Shown here: positions 19,783 to 55,478 of the stretch, piece after piece
Layout: every line of letters starts with the position of its first letter
Numbering within the stretch: the stretch's first letter is position 1
Virus record (IMG/VR): IMGVR_UViG_3300030004_000009
Span: 96,001-160,000 of that record
Source: a virus
Direction: 5' to 3' (one strand)
Length of the DNA: 64,000 bases
Notes under the pieces: generated by a model
The model's database searches: none
Seen by the model: only the letters and a program-made list of their open reading frames with translations
What the model was told of the DNA's origin: nothing
Position numbers and translations under genes: made by a program

Positions 19783-20139
19783 TTAATTATTTTCATATCT
19801 TGGTTTTAATTTTTGTTTTTCTCTTATTTTGATTATAGCTTCAGGTAGAGAGATCCTACTTAATTCTAATTGTTTACAAACTTCTAGATTCTCTCCAAAA
19901 CATGTACACAAAGCTGCTAAAGTAACTATAACTCCACCAACTTCTTGATAAACTTCACCTACTGGTCTATTGTATACATAATCAACCAGCTTTAATACAG
20001 TTTCTCTAGATAGACCAGTTGATTGTACAAGTTCTATAGCTTCTTCAATGAATCTCTGACCTCTCTCATGTTTATCAAATAGAATCTCTTCTCCAAAACA
20101 CTCTATAACCCAATTGTTAACTTTAGTTTGAAAGCTCAT
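19783..20139 (-). CDS. MazG-like nucleotide pyrophosphohydrolase
   Basis: RFIEEAIEL...QEVGGVIVTLAAL all-alpha NTP-PPase pattern. Confidence 0.6.
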   Translation of the reverse strand: MSFQTKVNNWVIECFGEEILFDKHERGQRFIEEAIELVQSTGLSRETVLKLVDYVYNRPVGEVYQEVGGVIVTLAALCTCFGENLEVCKQLELSRISLPEAIIKIREKQKLKPRYENN

Positions 20140-21772
20140 TTAAAGTTTTATTAATGTTTTCATTAATCCTAGCACGTATCTCAGCTAAAGTTGGATCAAC
20201 TAACAGATAACCATCTTCAAATACAGGTATTAATTCACCACCTTCTTCCTCTTCTTGTGTTACCTGATCAGTTAGGTAGAATTTACCTGATGGGTCTTTG
20301 TCAACTCGAAGTAAACCTTTTGCTGATTTCTTAGTTCCATCGTCTGTAATTGGATCTTTAAAGATTTCACGTTGCTCTATTTCATAGATTGGGTGTTCAG
20401 CTAGCATACCTCCTACAAATTGTTCAATAGGAAAACCTATAAGTTCTAACTCTGTCCCATCTTCTCTTACACCAAAGACTTTATCATCATGGTTAGTTAG
20501 AGTTAATGGATAAGCTACTTCACAATAAGTTGATTTAACTGCAATACCCAGGGAGTCTCTCGTCTGATAATTAAAAGTATAACTGCCTATTCCTAGAACA
20601 ATGTTTGTAGATGCAAAACCTTTAGCTTCAAGACGTTGACAGATTTCTTCTGCACGTTTTAAAGTAATAGAGTCTCCATAGATAGCACCAATATGTGGAT
20701 CAAGAACTTTATAACCTTGTTCATTGATAGTTCCACCAAATACATCCCAAAGAAGTTCAATTACACCTTTTCTAATAGGTGAATTATCGTTTACTGGTGA
20801 GTACCATGCATTTACACCATGTATACTTGTATTAGTTCCACATATAATATCAACTGGATCACCACTATCAGGACGAAGAACAGCTTTACCATCACGTGCT
20901 AAAATTTCATCCTTCAAAATAGGTAAGAATTCAGTTAAAACCTTCCATAGATCATAACTATCACTTACCATTGATACTATACCTGTAGGAAATTGTTGTA
21001 ATATCCTTCTAAATGATAGAAGTTCATTCTCTTTTCCATATGAGGTTGCTATAGAATGCTCGCTAGCAGGAACTGATGAGCCAACAAGCTCCTTCTCTAT
21101 GTTTGCATTATAGTATTCTTCGAGCATTAATACTGCTGGTATTGTATCAGTTCCAGTAAAAGATAGAAGATGACCTGCCTGATTTTGTGTCGACTCTGTA
21201 GAACTACGACCTCTTTGACTAAAGTCATGTCCTTGCCACTGTACTCCTTCAACACTACCTGTAGTTTTCAATGCCCACTTACTCAATAAAAGGCGATACT
21301 GATAACTAACTGTTGCAACTGTAGTTAGATCCCAAATTACTGTTGACATTTGAGTCTCAAGGAAGTTAACTAACCAAGCAAAGTCTGGATGTGTATTTGT
21401 AATTGTGTAGAATGGTACTTTAATTGGAACTATCGAACCTTCTGGTAATGCTTTAATTAGAAGTGGAAGATAACCTAACTCATGTAGTTTCTCTATATGG
21501 TCAGTTGTTACATCCACAAAACTAAAATGTTTATGGAAGCGTTTATATTCTTTAACTATATCCTCAATAGGACGATCAAAGAATAATTCATTCCATTGTT
21601 TATGTAAATATTCTTTAAGATAATAGTTTAAACCAAACCATATCGCATAATCTGTTCCTAACCTTGATGAACGAGGTGTCATATTAGAATATAACTTTGT
21701 CATTCCTTTAGGATAGAATAAATGGTGAAATTGCTTATAGGAATCTGACAGTAATACTGGTAATATTTTCAT
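20123..21772 (-). CDS. Nicotinamide phosphoribosyltransferase-family protein (Namat/NadV-like)
   Basis: SDSYK, HDFSQRG, GTDT, PASEHS, VSDSYD, RPDSGDP, IYGDSIT and KKSAKG motifs. Confidence 0.92.
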   Translation of the reverse strand: MKILPVLLSDSYKQFHHLFYPKGMTKLYSNMTPRSSRLGTDYAIWFGLNYYLKEYLHKQWNELFFDRPIEDIVKEYKRFHKHFSFVDVTTDHIEKLHELGYLPLLIKALPEGSIVPIKVPFYTITNTHPDFAWLVNFLETQMSTVIWDLTTVATVSYQYRLLLSKWALKTTGSVEGVQWQGHDFSQRGRSSTESTQNQAGHLLSFTGTDTIPAVLMLEEYYNANIEKELVGSSVPASEHSIATSYGKENELLSFRRILQQFPTGIVSMVSDSYDLWKVLTEFLPILKDEILARDGKAVLRPDSGDPVDIICGTNTSIHGVNAWYSPVNDNSPIRKGVIELLWDVFGGTINEQGYKVLDPHIGAIYGDSITLKRAEEICQRLEAKGFASTNIVLGIGSYTFNYQTRDSLGIAVKSTYCEVAYPLTLTNHDDKVFGVREDGTELELIGFPIEQFVGGMLAEHPIYEIEQREIFKDPITDDGTKKSAKGLLRVDKDPSGKFYLTDQVTQEEEEGGELIPVFEDGYLLVDPTLAEIRARINENINKTLNELSN

Positions 21773-37880: not shown

Positions 37881-38066
37881 TTTAATAAGTAGTAGTTATA
37901 CAGTAGAAACACCGATCAGCATTTAGATTATAAGTGAGCAGGATACTGATCCTCGAGGAATTTACCAGCTTCAGAGACTCATAACCAGCATTACCTTGTA
38001 CTTAGATTAACGGCTACTTAGCTATTACTACTGCTTTCCTACTATTTCTTTTTGATTGTTTTGAAG

Positions 38067-38483
38067 TGGAGTGTATGGGATTCGAACCCATGTCTTACTC
38101 ATCATTATAAAGCTTTCTACATGTTTAACTCAATTTTTATCGATAGTAGAGTTCCATCTATTTAGTTTTACATTCTAACAAATGTTTAAAAGCTTCTATT
38201 ACATTGCAGCTTAAATTAACTTTACATATTCCGCGTTTGGCCATAATTGTATGTTCAACTATCTGATTACACAGCCTAAGATCAGTATACTTTAACCCCA
38301 GATTAAGGGTCCACTATAACACTTTGTGTTAAGCTGCAATCCTCATAGAGGAAGTCCGGCTTGTCATGGAGATAACTTTACAGTTGCCATTTGAAATTTT
38401 GAAAGTTCTATTTAAAGTGGTCTCCTCACAACCCACTACATGCTTACTTTACTCTGTACGAGCAATCAATACCTGCACACCCC
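38067..38483 (-). ncRNA. ssrA: tmRNA; tag peptide (A)GNCKVISMTSRTSSMRIAA at 38388-38329
   Basis: GGGGTGT/ACACTCC-A acceptor with G3-U70; ATGGG-TTCGAAT-CCCAT T arm; TATTGA D-loop; resume context TCAAAT-GGC; tag ends IAA-stop. Confidence 0.92.
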
Positions 38484-46115: not shown

Positions 46116-46420
46116 CTTATATGCACTCAAATAAGTTGTCTAGCCATTTATGATCTTTGATATCTAGTGCATGTTGTTTTAATACCTGTTCTTTCTCTTC
46201 TTCACTTGACCATGTAAGTAATTGTGATGCAGGATTTGGTGTTCCAGCATAGATGTCTAAAGCTATCATAAATGGTAACTCTTTTGATCTGCATAATTCT
46301 TTGATGGTTTCATTATGATGATACGCTTTGTATAGAATTACAATACCTCGTTTACCTTCTGTCTTGATCTCTAATGCATCTGCTATTTCTGTGTTCATGA
46401 CTATTTGGTTTAAATGTAAG

Positions 46421-46494
46421 TATAGTGTATGGGACTTGAACCCATGATCTTCACATTGAAAATGTGACGTCTTAACCAGCTTGACCAACACTAC
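46421..46494 (-). tRNA. tRNA-Glu(TTC)
   Basis: GTAGTGT/ACACTAT acceptor; TCACA-TTTTCAA-TGTGA; ATGGG-TTCAAGT-CCCAT. Confidence 0.88.
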
Positions 46495-46543
46495 ATGACT
46501 TGCCCTCCTTATTAAAAGGTGAAACTAGTATAAAGATTTAAAG

Positions 46544-46631
46544 TAAACCATATGCAATTCGAATGCAAACCTCCTTTCGACGTCGTTACAGGTGTTCTCT
46601 GACTGAGTAGCCAGCTTAAACTAATGGTTTA
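46544..46631 (-). ncRNA. tRNA-like element with remodelled D and anticodon arms
   Basis: TAAACCAT/ATGGTTTA acceptor, TGCA-TTCGAAT-TGCA T arm, extra CTGGCT/AGTCAG hairpin in the D loop. Confidence 0.55.
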
Positions 46632-47102
46632 ATTGTACAGTAGTACAATGTGGTTTTGGCCCAACATTTAGTTGTAGGCACTTTGTTTTTCATGTTACTT
46701 GATTTTATTGCCACTCTCTTCCTTTTATTAATGCAATACCTAACGGTTTTGAATCTACTACAAATTGCCATGTGTAATCTGTAACCATCCATAACTTATC
46801 ACACGTTAAATCATAAGAACAAAATGTAAGTCCATTTGAAGTAGCTTTATAATTATAAAGCTTCCATCTTATTTGATCTTTATCTCTAACTAATTGTGTT
46901 AATTTATAGATTATTTGGTTATAAACCACGTTATCAATTTGTATTGTGTTGCGTTTAATTTCAGTACTATATGTTGGTTCTGCTCTACTCATCTTCTTTT
47001 GAGGAAGTTGTAAGCCCTCGAACTGTTCATTAATTGGCCATAAAACAAATAGAAAAACGCTTTGATTAATTAGTGGTTTTTTCATGTTATTTAGTTTTAC
47101 AT

Positions 47103-47161
47103 TTAGCTGATGGCTCTTAGCTGATGGCTCTTAGCTGATGGCTCTTAGCTGATGGCTCTTA
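47103..47161. repeat. Four perfect tandem copies of TTAGCTGATGGCTC (14 bp)
   Basis: Read directly; a single further copy at 40110-40123. Confidence 0.95.
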
Positions 47162-47166
47162 AAGTA

Positions 47167-47192
47167 AGGAGTTAGTATTGCTACTAACTCCT
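47167..47192 (-). terminator. GCAA-tetraloop hairpin (terminator or processing site); relatives at 49135-49160, 51226-51251, 51784-51815
   Basis: 11-14-bp stems all capped by TA-GCAA-TA on minus. Confidence 0.6.
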
Positions 47193-47573
47193 AATTGAAT
47201 GAAAAGATAATAAAAGAAATAAACTATAATAGTGATTGTAATGTTTGAAAGTTTAATTAAATATTTTGTTTGACGTGTTTTACGTTCTAAAATCATTTAT
47301 TAATCTTCCTGTAACGCTACAATTCGTTATAGGCTAATAAAGAGGAGTAAACTCTCTACCGTAACTTGACCTTTACTCTTCATTAGTTAATTATAAATGC
47401 TACCTTTATTACTCTGTTGAGTATAATTAAGCCGTGTCGCTATATGCTATCCTGTGACTCATTTATAATTAAATATTTAGTGATCGTAACATTTGTATTA
47501 AGGTTACAATTCGTTATAGAATCAGTAACTAAGATAGTTCCCACTATTCTTTCTAACTTAGTTAACAAACGGT

Positions 47574-47649
47574 TGGTTACACATTATGGATTTGAACCAC
47601 AATCAAGAGAACCAAAATCTCCTATCCTAGCCAGTTGGACGAATGTGCA
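47574..47649 (-). tRNA. tRNA-Gln(TTG)
   Basis: TGCACAT/ATGTGTA-A-CCA; GGAGA-TTTTGGT-TCTCT; GGTTCAAATCC. Confidence 0.9.
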
Positions 47650-50339
47650 ATTTAACTTTAAGAATAATATAATTACTGCTTATGAGGATTAAGGTAATAC
47701 TCATAAGCTACCACCAGCCATCCATCTCAAGTACCCACATGTGACCATCCTTAAGGTTTTACATATAGTAATCTTGGTTCCTCACTATACTATTCTTTTA
47801 ACTTAGAATTGCTATTATGATTCCTATTACTAAAAAAAGTAAAAAGATTAATAGACATTCTTTGAATGTTTGTGGATCAGGGTAAGTCGTCATCTTCTAT
47901 AAGTTTTTTAATTAAATATCGAATAGTTAAACCTGTTCCTACTATAAGTACAGCTAATGTACCTAGAATGTAATAAAATATTTCCATTGACTTTGTTTTT
48001 AATGGTTATCGTAGCCATTATAATAAATCCATGCTTTTAGACATAGAATACAAGTATAAACAAGTGCTACGATTAATAAAAGATAGATCATACTTTGTTT
48101 TGATAATTTGTGATTGTAAATGGTTTAATGACCGATTTAATTGAAGGGAGTTGCTGTTCGTTTTGAAGTAGAGTGATGAAAGCAGCTTGTGTCTTTAAAT
48201 CTTTGAATTCTTGTTCTTTAAGGTCTCCTTGATAAACTCTTAAAGTTTCTCTTGGAAGTATGATTAAAGTATAAATATTCATAATATTTGGTGACCATTT
48301 CCCTGTCATCACTCTACCTAAAACTGTTGTAATTTGCATTTTAAAAATGTTGCTCACTGTTACCAGGATAATTATAGTTATCAGAAGGTAAAGCATCACT
48401 ACCGTCAAATGTTCCAATAGGTTCAACTACTGGAACTTCATCATCAATCCAATTTTTTAGGTATTGTAATTTACTGATTGTTAAAGGCTGAATGATAAAG
48501 TTATCAGGTAATATTGATGGAATTAAAGGTTGACCAATCTCGTCTTCATCGAGATTGTAAGTTACGAACTCTGGTGTTTGTAAAGCTTCAGGTAAACCTA
48601 ACCATTCAGGTAAGTCACCACCATGAAACCAGAAGGCTTCAAGAATAGTTATTACACTGTGTTTGACAAGTGGTTCGTTAATTTCCTCTTTGATTTCTTC
48701 GACGCCCTCAATACTTGTGTGTAATGCATCAAGTCCTTGATTGACATACGTGTCAATTAAAGCTTGAAATTTTGGTGTGTAAAGTCTGATTATTCTCATG
48801 ATTTTGGTTTTAAGTTTGTTGTTTTATAACCACTTTGGTGGATTTCCTGGTAATTTACTTGCTAAATATTTGAATAGTAAACGAACTAAATATCCTAATA
48901 CAAATATCCAAGAAGATAAAGCTATTATTAAAGTTAATAGTATATCATCCCAAGTCCACTCTGTACTTATAGATTTTATAAAAATCCGCTTAACTAATTT
49001 GTAGGCTATAACATAACCTATAAAGTATATTGCTGTTAATATCATAACTTAACTGTTTAATAATAAGATGAATAAGATGAATAACAATAAAGCTATCCAT
49101 TCAATTTTGTTTAGTTTCATAATGTTTAAATTAAGGAGTTTAGTATTGCTACTAAACTCCAGCTGTTGATTTGATTTCGCACTTCAAATGTTCTTACTGC
49201 TCTTTAGGTAATTTAAGAGTTTTCCTATAATCCTCTATAATTATTGTATAAATAGATGGTGGATAATAAAAACCTTCACTATTAATGTGGAGCTCGTCGC
49301 CTTGTTTAAATACAGTATCTATGTCTAAGGGGATATAGACAGGAGTAACATCTCCAGCTTTTGCATTTATTGGTGAGTTTAACCATTTTCCTCTATAGAC
49401 TTTATAAGTTATAGAGTCAGAGGTTGAAGCCACATATGTTCCTGAATAACAGGATTGAAAGCTTAATGCGATTAAGCTGATGAATAAAATAATTGTTGTT
49501 TTCATGATTATTTGGTTTTTATGTTGATTATTTGATTTCTTTAGAATAAACATACGCTTGCTACTTACTTTTACATGAACGTGTACACATTATGTTAATA
49601 ACCTAAATAGTGTTGATACTGCTTTATAAATGGAAACCCATTTTGTAGAACTATACCTGCAATTAAGCAAGGCTACAAGAATATTTTTCGTATGTTTAGT
49701 TTTTAAAGCTCAACCTTTGCTATAAAAGGTTGAGCCGAGTGTTGTATTACCATCTTTAATATTTCACCACCGTTAAAGACCTTGTCCAAACAGAATGGTA
49801 TTGATGATTTGTAAGCTGGCATGATTAGTCTTTTAGCTCCTCAAATCCTATTCCTTTTACAAGATAGAATTTGTCATCGTCTTGGATAACATCTCCTACT
49901 GATGTACTACGTACTCCTGGATTCCATTCTTCATCCAGATTCTGTGATTTCTTAAATGCTTCATCTAATGATGTTGCATTAACAAAACCTACATACTTAC
50001 GTGGTTGACTTTTGGTTTCAGTAAACTTTAAAGGACCAGTTGCATGATGAATGTGAAATTGTCCTTCTTCCTCCTGAACAGGTGGAAATAACTCTTGCCA
50101 TTCTTCATCTATAATACCTGTAAGGTAGAACTCTCTTAAATCTTGTGGCAAATTACTGAAAGCGTCTTGAAGATGAGCACCTTTTTCATAGGCTGCGATT
50201 TGTTCTTGTGTAATAGGAAGATCTATTGTCCTCTCTATTCCACTGTACTGTGAAACTCGTGTTATATTCATGATGATTATTTGGTTACTTTTTAATAACA
50301 GGAATAGCTTCTTCACCTGTATATAGATATACCTTCTAC

Positions 50340-51224
50340 GCGTGCGACTTAATGAGATATCCTTTGTGTAGTTTCAACACTTCTCCCTGCTAGGGTTGTT
50401 TAGATTTAAGGGAATAGTTTTCTCACCCTTTATATTACCACTCATCAGGATTCATAGCCTGTGGTAACTTTGCATACTCTTTCAATGCTCTAACTTGTTT
50501 TGTGTGGATAGTTATTTAAGGTTTTCTCTATCCCAGCAACCAGGCTTCTACTATTTTTGATTTCAGTGGTTCAGCTTATTCCCACTTCTTCTTGTTTCTC
50601 GTTATTTGCTTTCATTGGTACAAGTCAATTAAGCTCAACAATTTGTCCTTCATTGTGTTAGTCTTCCCTCTTGGACTACAGAGTGTAATTAAACGCACCG
50701 TCTCCGATTTACACGGATCATAACAACTATCTTATAAATTGCTGTTATAATGGCTCAAGGTCGCTTAGTTGTCTTTTAAACAACATAACTGATGCGTATT
50801 TTTGGCCTTTGCACTACACTTCTTAGCCTGTGTTAGGGTGAGATTGATTACTCACTTGGTCGCTGGCCCAGCTGTTTACTGGCTTTTTAACTGATTGGTT
50901 AAATAATACATGCATTAGCTAACTTGAAAAGAGTTAGCGGTGATTAATAAATGTCTCACAACATTAATGGCTGTTCATAAACTAGCTTAATTAGAGCAAA
51001 TGAGTCGAGATTCGAACTCAATGAAACGTGATAGTTAAATAAAAAACGATGTATGAACTATGGAAACAAAAACTCTTAACTATCTATTCCTTTCCTACCT
51101 CATTTAATTAAACACTAAACTATGTATAATTCCTGCCAACGGAAGCTATTATCACCAACAATTGCCGGCAAAGTCCGCACGCCGTATTAATGGACTTACA
51201 AATTATACTATAGTTTAGTGTTTA
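50340..51224 (-). ncRNA. ~0.9-kb ORF-free cluster of structured elements
   Basis: Includes a tRNA-like element at 50998-51105 and a three-way junction at 51109-51224 with a 15-bp perfect basal stem. Confidence 0.5.
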
Positions 51225-52514
51225 AAGAGTTAGATATTGCTATCTAACTCTGTGTTTGTTATTCAATGATTTCACCTAACAACCACTCGCGAATGTCAAG
51301 AAGTAAGAACTTCTGAGCAATGTAAGTGTCTGGATTAAAGTTACCAATTCGGTGATTTGGATTTGTCTCAATCCTTTCTGCATTTGCTTTCTCTTTACCC
51401 GATTCTTCATCACGTTCTTCTTCACAATGTTTCATTCTTGCTTCAAGCCATTTGCGCATTAACATGACTTCAACACGGTTGAGTTCAATGTGAAACATAG
51501 CTTCGTCTTTAATGTCGTAATACGCCTTTTCAAGTGCATAATGACTTAATTTACGAAAGAGAGTGTTTGCTTCATCACTTGTTAGTTTATGATGAAAGAC
51601 GCCAAGTAAGATTTGCCTTACTGAAAACAATGACAATGTGAAGAGTGCTGAAATGTTGAAATTTACGTATCTAGGTTCGTTAACGGTTTGTACGTTTGAG
51701 GTTTTAAAGCCTGTTAATGGGATGTTTGATGTGTTCATGATCTTTGATTATTTGGTTTTTATGATTATTTGGTTTCTTTTTAATTGAGAGTTTAATATTG
51801 CTATTAAACTCTCAAGTGTTAATGTTTGTTTTCTGTGATCATAAAGTCATAAGAGTTTCTTGTATTACCTACACTAAATTCCATATAACCATACTCACAA
51901 TTCTTGTCTCTGTATTCCTGATTCCCTACTAAATGGTCTTTAGACCATTCTTTAAAATCTTCTTCGTTGACAATCTTAGTATCTTCTGTGTATACTAAAA
52001 GAATTTCTTTCTTGTGTGTTTCAGAAGAACTTGTATGAGGTCTCATTAATATTAATTTACCTTCTAATACAACTTTGTTGCTTTTGTTCATAATGTAAAA
52101 GTACATGATCTTTGATGTTTTTAATATGATGTTATTTGGTTATTTGGTTATTTACTCTTTTGGATATTAACACTCCCTTACTCCTATTTTATTTAAACAA
52201 TTGTTTAAAACAACTTTTAATAGTCTGAAAGGTGATTTGTGGTTTTATTTTCATTCATCGTAATATTACGATTGATCGAAAAATGATCATTTTTGAACGA
52301 AATTGAGCACTTAAATTTACACCACCAAGTTAAAAATAGACTTAGTTCCGTTTTTAGACTAATGGAGTGGATGTGTACTACAAGCTTGTATTTGATCTAC
52401 GAGATTCTCGTAATTGAAAATAACCGCTATGTCGATCGACTATTCCATTCATTTCAATTACAAAATTAACACTCTCAAGTCCATACTAGACATGAGAGTA
52501 AGAAAAGAGAAAGC

Positions 52515-52949
52515 TTACACTTTCTCTTTTCTTTTAGCTGGTTGTTTAACTTCATTTGGATCTATTTCAACATATACCCATTTGTCCTCACCCTCTTTTG
52601 CATCATGTTTCCATGTTGCTTTATGAGTTCTTTTCCATTCTTCATACTGTTCAAATGTCATATCTACAGCTCGATTAGTTGTAGGTTCACTGTGTATCAT
52701 TGTAGTATAGCCGTTATAGTTCTTTATAACAATTATAAATAATGGGACATCAAGTTCGATAACAGAGTAAAGTTTATCTGAATGTTTATAGAAAGGTTCA
52801 GTTCTAACATTTGCAGCTGATGCTTTATTTAAAGCACCTTGAATTACATGATTTGCACCAACTGTAACATTTAATGATAATACCTGAGGCATATCTATTA
52901 CATTAAAAGAGAAAGCATGTACTGGATCAATAACTAGTAATATCTTCAT
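52515..52949 (-). CDS. Hypothetical early protein; start 20 nt downstream of the hammerhead cleavage site
   Basis: ATG at 52949 after AACCAAATAATCAACATC; the track start lies inside the ribozyme. Confidence 0.6.
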   Translation of the reverse strand: MKILLVIDPVHAFSFNVIDMPQVLSLNVTVGANHVIQGALNKASAANVRTEPFYKHSDKLYSVIELDVPLFIIVIKNYNGYTTMIHSEPTTNRAVDMTFEQYEEWKRTHKATWKHDAKEGEDKWVYVEIDPNEVKQPAKRKEKV

Positions 52950-52963
52950 GATGTTGATTATTT

Positions 52964-53018
52964 GGTTAAGACACAAACTGTGTTTCGGCTATTCTTTTTT
53001 AAGCCTCATCAGTTAACC
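52964..53018 (-). ncRNA. Type I hammerhead ribozyme
   Basis: GGUUAA-CUGAUGA-GGCU(11nt)AGCC-GAA-ACACA(GUU)UGUGU-C|UUAACC: complete core and three stems. Confidence 0.88.
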
Positions 53019-53260
53019 TTACTTCTTAATTAAAACTATGCTTACACATTACAAGGTAAGACTGATATCTTACTTTATAAGTGACTGTTCCTTGACTTCT
53101 ATGCTTACACATAGAGTTACTCCCTCCTTGACTTATACAATATCATTGCACACCGTTTACGCGCGTAGTTCCTTAATGGAAATGCTACGTGATACTAAAA
53201 TTGCTACACTATCAATATGTAATGATACACGAAGCGATCTTTAGATCCACGCGTTGTATG

Positions 53261-53332
53261 CCTTGTATATCGAAGAGCGATAGACCTTACATATCGAAGA
53301 GTGATAGACCTTGCATATCGAAGCGTAATGAA
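53261..53332. repeat. Three ~24-bp direct repeats CCTTRYATATCGAAGAGYGATAGA
   Basis: Copies start at 53261, 53285 and 53309 (third degenerate at its 3' end). Confidence 0.85.
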
Positions 53333-53381
53333 GAGCGAAGTTAAAATCGAATGCGAAGCATGAGTACTGTTATACCAAACT

Positions 53382-53411
53382 AAACTATGAGCCCTTTCGG
53401 ACCCATAGTTT
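53382..53411 (-). terminator. Intrinsic terminator-like hairpin
   Basis: AAACTATGGGTCC-GAAA-GGGCTCATAGTTT just after the stop at 53424. Confidence 0.65.
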
Positions 53412-53423
53412 AATCAACGCTTA

Positions 53424-54011
53424 CTACTTAGGCATAATGTTAAAGGTATAACAATTTGCCTTGTTTTCACTTTGTACAGAACCATCAGGATTCTTCCTGA
53501 TGACGTTGTTTTGAGCATTATCATCTCTGAAAAATGCAGTGCAAACTAACCGTTTGCCTACCAGTGAGTCAATTAACTCACTTGGTTTAATTTCGGGATA
53601 AGGGATAACCCTAGTAACTTCACCGGCAGCATCCAGGAAGGAAAACACTGTTTTAGATTTGCCTTGTGCAAGCAAACCCAATGTAATCTTCTTGCCGTCT
53701 TTAAAGACGATCATCCTTGCATGCGGATTGTCTCCGATATCCGCAATGGTGTATTTCGTATCTTCAGAGCCGTCTTCTTTCTTACCTTTAATGGTAACAG
53801 TCTGCGGTTGAGTAAGTTTACGAACGTTTGGCGCGGTAGTTGTATCGATTTCTTCCCAACCGATGGACACTATCTCACCTGAATAGCCCTGAAACATAGC
53901 ACCGGAAATACCGGAGAACGACAAAATAGAAGTGTTTGGGTCAGCTTGTTTAAGCTCTAACTCGAACAAAGCCTTAAGCTCTGCTTTTGTGGGGTTTTTT
54001 TTCTCAATCAT
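53424..54011 (-). CDS. Hypothetical protein, first gene of the minus-strand arm
   Basis: 195 aa, more GC-rich than its flanks. Confidence 0.6.
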   Translation of the reverse strand: MIEKKNPTKAELKALFELELKQADPNTSILSFSGISGAMFQGYSGEIVSIGWEEIDTTTAPNVRKLTQPQTVTIKGKKEDGSEDTKYTIADIGDNPHARMIVFKDGKKITLGLLAQGKSKTVFSFLDAAGEVTRVIPYPEIKPSELIDSLVGKRLVCTAFFRDDNAQNNVIRKNPDGSVQSENKANCYTFNIMPK

Positions 54012-54284
54012 TGTAGTGATTTTTTAAGATTAATGAATAAATAAATGATTTGTACGGAAGATGGTGAGGGGGTAACAAACTGACCTCTTGAAATGACACC
54101 TCCTTACACATGATTTTTAAAAATTTTATAAAAAATAAAAAATAATATATATAAAAAATTTTATAGAAGGATGAGGCTTATATCAGAGTCATAGAATCAA
54201 AAAGACCTAAAACTAAATAATAGCTTTTTATTTTTTGAAATTTCATAAGTTTAGAATTTGTGACTTAATCTATTTAAAACTAAA

Positions 54285-54316
54285 TTTGCTATTTTCAATT
54301 ATTTTTAGTATCTTTA
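54285..54316 (+). promoter_or_regulatory. Bacteroidota-type promoter
   Basis: TTTG-N20-TATCTTTA, ATG 3 nt downstream. Confidence 0.6.
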
Positions 54317-54319
54317 CAT

Positions 54320-54802
54320 ATGATTTATTTTATACAAGCAGACAACTATGTTAAGGTTGGTTATACATCAAATTTAAAGAAAAGATTTCAAGATTATGTA
54401 ACAGAGAACCCTAACAAGGTAATACTAATAGCTCAATGTAATGGTGCGTATGATATTGAAAATAAGATACATAAACAACTTAAAGACTTTCATCATCGTG
54501 CAGAATGGTTTCATCTAAATAAAGAATCAGAAACATTAATTAAAAAGATAGTAAAAGAAAATAAAGATAATATTGAACCTAAATATGTAAAAAAGAAAAG
54601 AGTAAAGCGATTGCATCTTAAAGTCCTAGAGATATTAAAAAGTCACTGTACCTTAACTAGAGAGTTACTTATAACATCAGATATAAAGAAAAAGATAGCA
54701 GAAGAGTTTAACGTACAACTAGCTACAATAAATAATCATATTAAGAAATTAGAAAAATTAGGAAAAATAAAGAAGTTGGAAACTACTTACTATATAAATT
54801 AA
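54320..54802 (+). CDS. GIY-YIG (T5orf172/MUG113-like) protein with C-terminal HTH
   Basis: IYFIQA..YVKVGYT....R...E..IH..L....RAEWF; IAEEFNVQLATINNHIKKL. Confidence 0.75.
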   Translation: MIYFIQADNYVKVGYTSNLKKRFQDYVTENPNKVILIAQCNGAYDIENKIHKQLKDFHHRAEWFHLNKESETLIKKIVKENKDNIEPKYVKKKRVKRLHLKVLEILKSHCTLTRELLITSDIKKKIAEEFNVQLATINNHIKKLEKLGKIKKLETTYYIN

Positions 54803-55022: not shown

Positions 55023-55478
55023 ATGAGTAAGCATGAAGTAAAAAGTACAGTTAGAGAATACGTAGATCAAGATACAGGTGAGATATCTTTAATAGAAACA
55101 CAGAAAACTCATATAATCAAAGTTGTAGAAGAAGAGTTTTTTATGATGCATGTGAAGTTATTAAAAAATTACTACGACTTAGATCATGTATCAGACTTTA
55201 GATTAATTGTTAAGTTATGTGAATTAGCAGAATTTAATACAGGTAGTGTTAGTATAAGCACTGGTAAAAGACAAGAGATATGTAAAGAACTTAATATAAA
55301 TACTACTAACTTTTCAAAGTACATCAAAAGATTAAAAGATAAAAAATTAATAACAGGAGATAAAGGAGAATATCTAATCAATCCAGGAATATTTTGGAAA
55401 GGTGATAGAAGAGAAAGAAAAAAGTTACTAGATTCAGGAAGTTTATCAGTAGTATTTGAATTTAGGAAAGAGGAGTAA
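55023..55478 (+). CDS. RepL-like winged-helix protein
   Basis: VDQDTGEI N-terminus; HTH followed by YLINPGIFWKG. Confidence 0.7.
   Translation: MSKHEVKSTVREYVDQDTGEISLIETQKTHIIKVVEEEFFMMHVKLLKNYYDLDHVSDFRLIVKLCELAEFNTGSVSISTGKRQEICKELNINTTNFSKYIKRLKDKKLITGDKGEYLINPGIFWKGDRRERKKLLDSGSLSVVFEFRKEE

Follow-up and report, generated by a model that had tools for sequence, protein, structure and literature searches.

A type I hammerhead ribozyme ahead of a small gene in the genome of an uncultured peat phage

It has been established since 2011 that type I hammerhead ribozymes occur at gene boundaries of phages and prophages (Perreault et al. 2011, PMC3088659). The gene-flanking phage representatives cleave in vitro and in E. 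coli, and a role in the processing of long transcripts was proposed for them (PMC3088659). This transcript-cutting role was still listed as unproven in a 2019 review, and the purpose of bacterial and phage hammerheads is presented there as a question that is still open (PMC6765202). The same question is raised by the locus described here, where a new example of the kind known since 2011 precedes a small phage gene: which RNA does such a ribozyme serve, the one that it would leave behind or the one that it would release?

The window, i.e. the whole stretch of DNA that was analysed (64,000 nucleotides), corresponds to bases 96001-160000 of a 176.7-kb IMG/VR virus record originating from an uncultured peat phage. 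The phage genome displays 32% G+C and is rated 86% complete. All coordinates given below are those of the window, and the features of the locus are collected in Table 1.

The locus and the anatomy of the ribozyme

The ribozyme is located approximately 1 kb into a leftward gene arm, after the first gene of that arm, and on the same strand as the downstream 144-aa gene. The label 'early', putatively applied to this region, derives solely from gene content and from the adjacency of the strand switch (54012-54319). The 144-aa protein displays no Pfam or PHROG family and no usable Atlas match, and no relative other than itself was retrieved among 5.8 billion proteins. The exact protein is present on at least 23 contigs from peat and permafrost assemblies; neither of the two flanking proteins (195 and 144 aa) has relatives in the viral contig collection. 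All seven contigs carrying the 144-aa gene are 100% identical over the stretch that each of them covers.

A distant blastn search against cultured phages returned no match. The DNA polymerase of the phage is closest to the polymerases of crAss-like phages (37% identity), and a Shine-Dalgarno-like 4-mer is found in only 13 of the 215 genes of the genome. The hosts of crAss-like phages are Bacteroidota. The scarcity of Shine-Dalgarno 4-mers and the crAss-like polymerase would both fit a Bacteroidota host using A-rich leaders. Regarding the phage at large, 5-10% of the sampled words were contained in four peat or permafrost metatranscriptome runs. The window also includes a phage tmRNA gene (38064-38483, minus strand; Rfam RF00023, 63.3 bits for a gathering score of 47), for which ARAGORN made no call, and a nicotinamide phosphoribosyltransferase is encoded at 20123-21772 (PHROG 448, E 7.5e-180).

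The element itself is a complete type I hammerhead with a consensus core, which extends from 53018 to 52964 on the minus strand and comprises stems I, II and III of 6, 4 and 4-5 bp, respectively. It reads GGUUAA-CUGAUGA-GGCU(loop UAAAAAAGAAU)AGCC-GAA-ACAC(AGUUU)GUGU-C/UUAACC, where the slash denotes the cleavage site. Since loops close stems II and III and only stem I is open, its topology is of type I. All the positions of the consensus published by Perreault et al. 2011 are present, namely C3, U4, G5, A6, N7, G8 and A9 in the first half of the core, G12, A13 and A14 in the second half, the A15.1-U16.1 pair and a base other than G at H17. A52983 pairs with U52971, and stem II is closed by the G10.1-C11.1 pair. 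The 3' product, read from 52969, begins with UUAACCAAAUAAUCAACAUC and continues with the AUG at 52949. A preliminary description of this DNA had put forward the complete type I core with a GUC cut between 52970 and 52969, the 20-nt leader followed by the AUG and the overlap of stem I with that leader; every coordinate and every letter was found as stated, including the sequence of the 3' product.

Table 1. Coordinates of the ribozyme, of its neighbourhood and of the genes sharing its leader motif
Feature	Position in the window	Strand	Remark
195-aa gene, upstream of the spacer	53424-54011	-	opens the leftward arm past the strand switch (54012-54319)
14-bp hairpin with GAAA loop	53381-53412		just past the stop of the 195-aa gene
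Non-coding spacer, 405 nt	53019-53423	-	repeat-rich; directly upstream of the ribozyme
Three tandem 24-nt repeats	53245-53323		in the spacer
13-nt repeat	53089-53101, 53125-53137		in the spacer
Exact 14-nt repeat ATGTGTAAGCATAG, two copies	53036-53049, 53099-53112		in the spacer
Stem I, 5' arm GGUUAA	53013-53018	-	preceding base A, as in 97% of the family copies listed
Core, first half: C3 U4 G5 A6 U7 G8 A9 (CUGAUGA)	53006-53012	-	
Stem II, GGCU/AGCC	52987-53005	-	4 bp and 11-nt loop UAAAAAAGAAU
Core, second half: G12 A13 A14 (GAA)	52984-52986	-	
Stem III hairpin, 13 nt	52971-52983	-	A15.1-U16.1, C-G, A-U, C-G, optional A-U
Cleavage site, C17 (52970) / U1.1 (52969)	52969-52970	-	GUC triplet
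Stem I, 3' arm UUAACC	52964-52969	-	doubles as nt 1-6 of the leader
Leader of the 3' cleavage product, 20 nt	52950-52969	-	contains AACCAAAUAAUC (52967-52956); no Shine-Dalgarno
144-aa gene, downstream of the ribozyme	52515-52949	-	ORFan
Genes with ACCAAATA leader (position of ATG)	52949, 52106, 51738, 50271, 49505, 46398	-	tandem copies at 52106 and 51738 (159-aa gene)

The hammerhead shape is the minimum-free-energy fold of a 76-nt stretch, with a modest energy z-score of -1.06. The predicted probability of the hammerhead fold in its local context is 0.049, a typical value given the median of 0.07 among the family copies listed (rank 56 out of 126; the family is described in the next section). 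Loop II is enlarged yet retains the first U and the last AAU that are conserved in the family loop (U-N-A-R-U), the extra bases being placed at the variable second position, where an inserted hairpin is found in two other copies. Stem III is the shortest and the most AU-rich among the family copies listed. In comparison with Rfam Hammerhead_1 (RF00163, clan CL00010), the type I topology, the core and the G10.1-C11.1 pair are the same, whereas stem I of the window copy is limited to 6 bp, is devoid of any bulge or loop for contacting loop II, and the score remains below the gathering threshold. In hammerheads, fast cleavage at physiological Mg2+ calls for a tertiary contact of stem I with loop II, or for a pseudoknot. 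A pseudoknot between loop II and its flanks was searched by mutual information, with no convincing result and no Watson-Crick covariation. The conserved loop II (U-N-A-R-U) and the invariant stem I could reflect a non-canonical contact.

Chance expectation and membership of a phage hammerhead family

A descriptor combining a strict core, stems of at least 4/3/3 bp and a U followed by H at the cut site was applied to both strands of the 176.7-kb genome and returned exactly one match. No further hammerhead was retrieved from the genome with a relaxed-core descriptor or with a covariance model run with its filters off. Markov-model genomes (n=60) yielded 0.05 matches per genome, and random contexts anchored on CUGAUGA (n=400,000) yielded 0.057 per genome with lax settings and 0.0017 at the observed stem lengths. 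Such a chance rate is convincing for one genome and insufficient alone for a scan of ~250,000 windows, and homologues were therefore sought.

A first pattern from which stem I was left out (CTGATGAGGCTT..AGCCGAAAC) retrieved ten viral loci. Several of these display a GGTTAA/TTAACC stem I followed by AAA and by an ATG a dozen bases further on, and their stem III differs with compensating changes. A second pattern (GGTTAACTGATGAG..CGAAAC) matched at least 120 stretches, with two to four copies on some contigs. The resulting family spans more than 120 viral contigs; parsing of the matches listed gave 126 distinct copies. Within these same listed matches, stem II is nearly always made of 4 bp and a 5-nt loop U-N-A-R-U, stem III ranges from 13 to 59 nt, the H17 position is occupied by C in 95 copies and by A in the other 31, and the base following stem I is A in 96% of the copies (97% for the preceding base, Table 1).

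The pairing of the family was examined on a 36-copy alignment. Standard pairs occupy 99.5% of the cells, a share that falls to 22-42% once the partners are displaced by 1-3 columns, and 98 cells are changed on both sides, against 26 +/- 4.5 in shuffles. Changes on both sides affect 8 pairs of stems II and III, and all four types of Watson-Crick pairs are encountered at three positions of stem II and at four positions of stem III. Stem I is invariant in the collected copies, partly because its 5' arm was fixed by the search pattern, and it brings no covariation support. One family copy (L079:1318-1380, minus strand) carries CGAAAG...CCUC in place of CGAAAC...GUC, which amounts to a compensatory G-C flip of pair 15.2-16.2 beside the core.

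A covariance model, designated R1, was built with 36 copies from other phages, the window copy being excluded. The window element scores 61.3 bits with this model (E 2.7e-11) over the full length of 1-65. The next-best match within the window reaches 14.9 bits, and the rest of the genome contains no R1 match. The element is, by its sequence, a true member of the family of phage hammerheads with a GGUUAA stem I.

None of the Rfam hammerhead families (RF00163, RF02275, RF03152 and others) returned a score above its gathering threshold for the window element: HH9 gives 16.3 bits for a gathering score of 52, and RAGATH-1-hammerhead 17.4 for 56.3. Typical family copies are below the Rfam thresholds as well, as only one of about 15 copies in six loci was detected at E<0.01, with 29.5 bits for a gathering score of 34. 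The gathering thresholds thus miss an abundant subfamily carried by more than 120 viral contigs, and routine annotation will therefore overlook it. A chance look-alike, or a dead relic that no longer cleaves, is a highly improbable explanation of the window element. Although the Rfam scores are far under threshold, the fold z-score is just -1.06, stem III is short and AU-rich, and an expectation of ~6e-4 per window would produce many chance occurrences over ~250,000 windows, the 61.3-bit match was obtained with an independent family model, and features that nothing forced are matched too: the A at -1, the A after stem I, the ends of loop II and the 20-nt leader.

The family pattern is rare in bacterial genomes, with only 13 occurrences in those of 185,579 species. 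Most of the carriers found on long or complete records are Bacteroidota (Paraflavitalea, whose complete genome contains two copies, Agriterribacter and Sphingobacteriales), and two other matches on long contigs belong to MAGs assigned to Dehalococcoidia and Bdellovibrionales. The signature sequence of the subfamily was not found in the text and supplements of Perreault et al. 2011 or in the other literature searched, their full alignments being possibly outside this search. As in that work (PMC3088659), the window element belongs to the same class with the same core, occupies an intergenic position within a phage gene array, on the coding strand, and lies immediately upstream of a small gene (there, for instance, ardA). 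It differs by its single copy in 176.7 kb, as judged by the descriptor and the covariance model, instead of clustered ribozymes bracketing a gene, by the 405-nt non-coding spacer that replaces a gene end upstream, and by its subfamily, characterized by a fixed GGUUAA stem I with no detectable pseudoknot.

Nothing in 1.16 Mb of family loci resembles the flanking proteins, and the ribozyme therefore travels independently of its neighbours. It may be asked whether the ~55-nt ribozyme and its leader constitute a passenger module that spreads with gene cassettes among Bacteroidota phages and has little or no selected function here. The ribozyme is indeed shared at 61 bits in the presence of flanking proteins that match nothing in those loci, it exists as a single copy in the genome, and at least five neighbouring genes display the same leader motif with no ribozyme. 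The core and the three helices are however intact, with no sign of decay, the conserved positions of loop II have been kept despite the insertion, and the leader spacing corresponds to the family mode. A mere passenger is accordingly rated as quite unlikely.

Proposed cleavage of the transcript and competing explanations

Among the matches listed, the first ATG that begins an ORF of 40 codons or more lies a median of 22 nt beyond the cut site, and this spacing is comprised between 18 and 24 nt in 89 of 118 copies; it equals 20 nt in the window copy, where UUAACC is followed by the A-rich tail AAAUAAUC. The explanation that we favour, and consider probable, is that an active-type type I hammerhead cuts a leftward RNA and frees the downstream mRNA with a fixed 20-nt 5'-OH leader. 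The leftward RNA containing the ribozyme would either continue from the 195-aa gene or start within the spacer. The ribozyme would fold co-transcriptionally and cut after C52970, and its body would remain on the upstream RNA, terminated by a 2',3'-cyclic phosphate. The downstream mRNA would be freed with a 5'-OH and a 20-nt A-rich leader devoid of Shine-Dalgarno, beginning 2 nt before the motif AACCAAAUAAUC. Both the 5'-OH and the 2',3'-cyclic phosphate ends are expected because of the chemistry of the hammerhead class. The 144-aa gene, and probably later genes too, would in this way be uncoupled from the repeat-rich upstream RNA and be provided with a leader of fixed, standard length. What would be specific to this locus is that the RNA removed is a repeat-rich non-coding stretch instead of a gene and that the leader is the standard one of the phage. 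The ribozyme motif and its place in the family, the covariation, the geometry of the leader and the leader motif are all observed here, and from them we infer cleavage in vivo, co-transcription and an effect on stability or translation. The best-supported role in our analysis would be the one that Perreault et al. proposed for phage hammerheads, in which a longer phage transcript is cut to provide the downstream gene with an mRNA of its own.

The upstream side of the ribozyme deserves separate consideration. Among the matches listed, 74 of 126 copies have the stop codon of an upstream ORF on the same strand no more than 6 nt away from where stem I begins, and in 35 of those 74 it is the TAA included in GGTTAA. 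This feature is common without defining the subfamily. It is absent from the window copy, in which 405 nt of non-coding DNA are found instead, and this copy is unusual both in lying behind such a repeat-rich spacer and in being single in a 177-kb genome. A 491-nt stretch containing the spacer folds better than its shuffles (z = -3.1). The spacer matches no Rfam family and has no relatives, and no other structured RNA was detected by Rfam in the spacer and the gene arm (E<=0.5). Neither a Bacteroidota-type TAnnTTTG promoter element nor a sigma-70-like site was found in the spacer (53019-53423, minus strand), and upstream of the family copies the -7 motif shows no enrichment. The 14-nt repeat ATGTGTAAGCATAG was considered as a candidate dispersed promoter and was rejected, as it is confined to the spacer. 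The strong hairpin following the 195-aa gene may terminate transcription, and, instead of an RNA element, the spacer could represent operator DNA or an iteron-like origin. At ~1.6 kb from the spacer lies a RepL-like gene (55023-55478), and a T5orf172/HTH gene is found at 54320-54802.

Hairpins with a GNRA-type loop (GCAA/GAAA) are located at 51226-51251, 51787-51812, 47172-47187, 49140-49155 and 53381-53412, the first four sharing a sequence family. At the three of these five sites that were checked, they are placed directly past the stops of small genes of the arm, with no long U tracts, and they may be terminators or protective hairpins of 3' ends. A 14-nt unit (TTAGCTGATGGCTC, plus strand) is present in four to five tandem copies at 47103-47172, just upstream of the leader of a 126-aa gene (46705-47085). 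Two further stretches of the same arm are devoid of ORFs of at least 60 aa (50317-51258, ~940 nt, and 52107-52514, 408 nt) and are reminiscent of the early intergenic regions of the crAss-like phage phi14:2, which are highly transcribed.

In another explanation, the ribozyme mainly serves the RNA that precedes it. It would form the 3' end of a non-coding RNA originating from the spacer, or that of the 195-aa mRNA, the folded ribozyme and its 2',3'-cyclic phosphate acting as a protective cap and the new 5' end being a by-product. The type I topology leaves the whole ribozyme on the 5' fragment, and in the 74 of 126 listed copies that adjoin an upstream stop (within 6 nt of stem I) the ribozyme represents the 3' UTR of the upstream gene. 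The folding of the 491-nt stretch and the high transcription of long early intergenic regions in phi14:2 (bioRxiv 10.1101/2020.03.07.982082) point in the same direction. What is kept constant in the family is nevertheless the spacing to the ATG downstream together with the tail sequence on that side, and nothing upstream; moreover, the spacer is without Rfam match or relatives and its repeats resemble DNA-level sites as much as RNA elements. A role devoted to the upstream RNA is for these reasons judged unlikely.

On the downstream side, the preliminary description had also suggested that self-cleavage may unmask translation. The uncleaved ribozyme would then act as a translational switch blocking initiation at the AUG 52949, and cleavage would expose the leader. 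Stem I pairs with nt 1-6 of the leader, the folded ribozyme stands 14 nt from the AUG, i.e. approximately at the edge of the 30S footprint, and the length of the leader is tightly constrained in the family. The predicted accessibility, however, is altered only at these first six nucleotides, whose unpaired probability increases from 0.73 in the uncleaved to 0.94 in the cleaved RNA. From nt 7 to AUG+3 the predicted values are the same before and after cleavage (0.66 vs 0.65), with family medians of 0.67 and 0.71, and the folding model thus lends no support to the unmasking. No switch is evident, and no aptamer-like extension was seen on the ribozyme. Natural hammerheads cleave in seconds to minutes in a ligand-free manner. 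Translational switching at this AUG appears improbable.

The release of a downstream mRNA, which remains our preferred explanation, has counterparts among known systems. In RiboJ, reportedly described by Lou et al. in 2012 (Nat Biotechnol), a hammerhead placed just before the translation start is said to strip variable upstream RNA and to leave a fixed short 5'-OH leader. RiboJ is reportedly a type III ribozyme that originates from tobacco ringspot virus satellite RNA and carries an extra hairpin, and it is said to be used in E. coli together with a Shine-Dalgarno. The phage element would work alike, as a natural version of such an insulator, but is of type I and resides in a genome hardly using Shine-Dalgarno sequences. 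Hammerheads of type I have also been described in RNA viruses of fungi and plants, where they reside in 5' UTRs or intergenic UTRs, a few nt upstream of an ORF start, and where the 5' end at the cut site was confirmed in vivo for one virus (NAR 2026, PMC13725137). These are eukaryotic RNA viruses relying on cap-independent translation, whereas the present element belongs to a DNA phage of bacteria, with nothing suggesting an IRES-like role.

The leader motif and the genes devoid of ribozyme

The leader motif AACCAAAUAAUC is not restricted to the 144-aa gene, as it also heads at least five neighbouring genes devoid of ribozyme. The preliminary description had mentioned an early-gene leader motif, and as a motif it is real: ACCAAATA is found at 35 nt or less upstream of the ATG in six minus-strand genes between 46.4 and 53 kb (Table 1). 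Of these genes, the first one (52949) is the only one to be preceded by a ribozyme. A variant of the motif precedes the gene starting at 48799. The genome contains 20 minus-strand and two plus-strand occurrences of CCAAATAA. Conservation around the motif, given as AACCAAATAATC, extends to a block of up to 32 nt, and the motif lies upstream of six or seven small genes over 46398-52967 of the window (minus strand).

The leader motif is essentially the tail that follows the cut site in the family. In 1.15 Mb of family loci, AACCA[AT][AT] is present within 35 nt before 10% of the ORFs lacking a GGTTAA ribozyme, compared with a background of 2.4% (~4-fold), and a few of the ORFs led by this sequence and counted as ribozyme-free may have variant ribozymes. 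Two tRNA genes of the phage are similarly placed. The tRNA-Glu gene (46421-46494) ends 22 nt before the ATG (46398) of a motif-led 93-aa gene, and 31 nt separate the end of the tRNA-Ile gene from a 176-aa ORF; tRNA processing would therefore give leaders of ribozyme-like length.

A more tentative proposal, on which we place limited confidence, is that the invariant 3' arm of stem I and the tail (UUAACCAAAUAA) may be fixed as a general translation leader of these Bacteroidota phages devoid of Shine-Dalgarno sequences, and not for the sake of catalysis. Cutting by the ribozyme and processing of the tRNA would both yield leaders of ~20 nt beginning just before the motif, and, if the proposal is true, the functional product would be a processed 5' end located ~20 nt before the AUG.

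The locus is a well-supported member of its family in an unusual setting, namely a single copy in a crAss-related 177-kb peat phage, at the head of a run of genes sharing one leader motif. The motif-led genes devoid of ribozyme provide a built-in control for the effect of the ribozyme on mRNA stability or translation. Should the proposal of a general leader be true, the genes with and without a ribozyme would offer a natural comparison bearing on the purpose of bacterial hammerheads.
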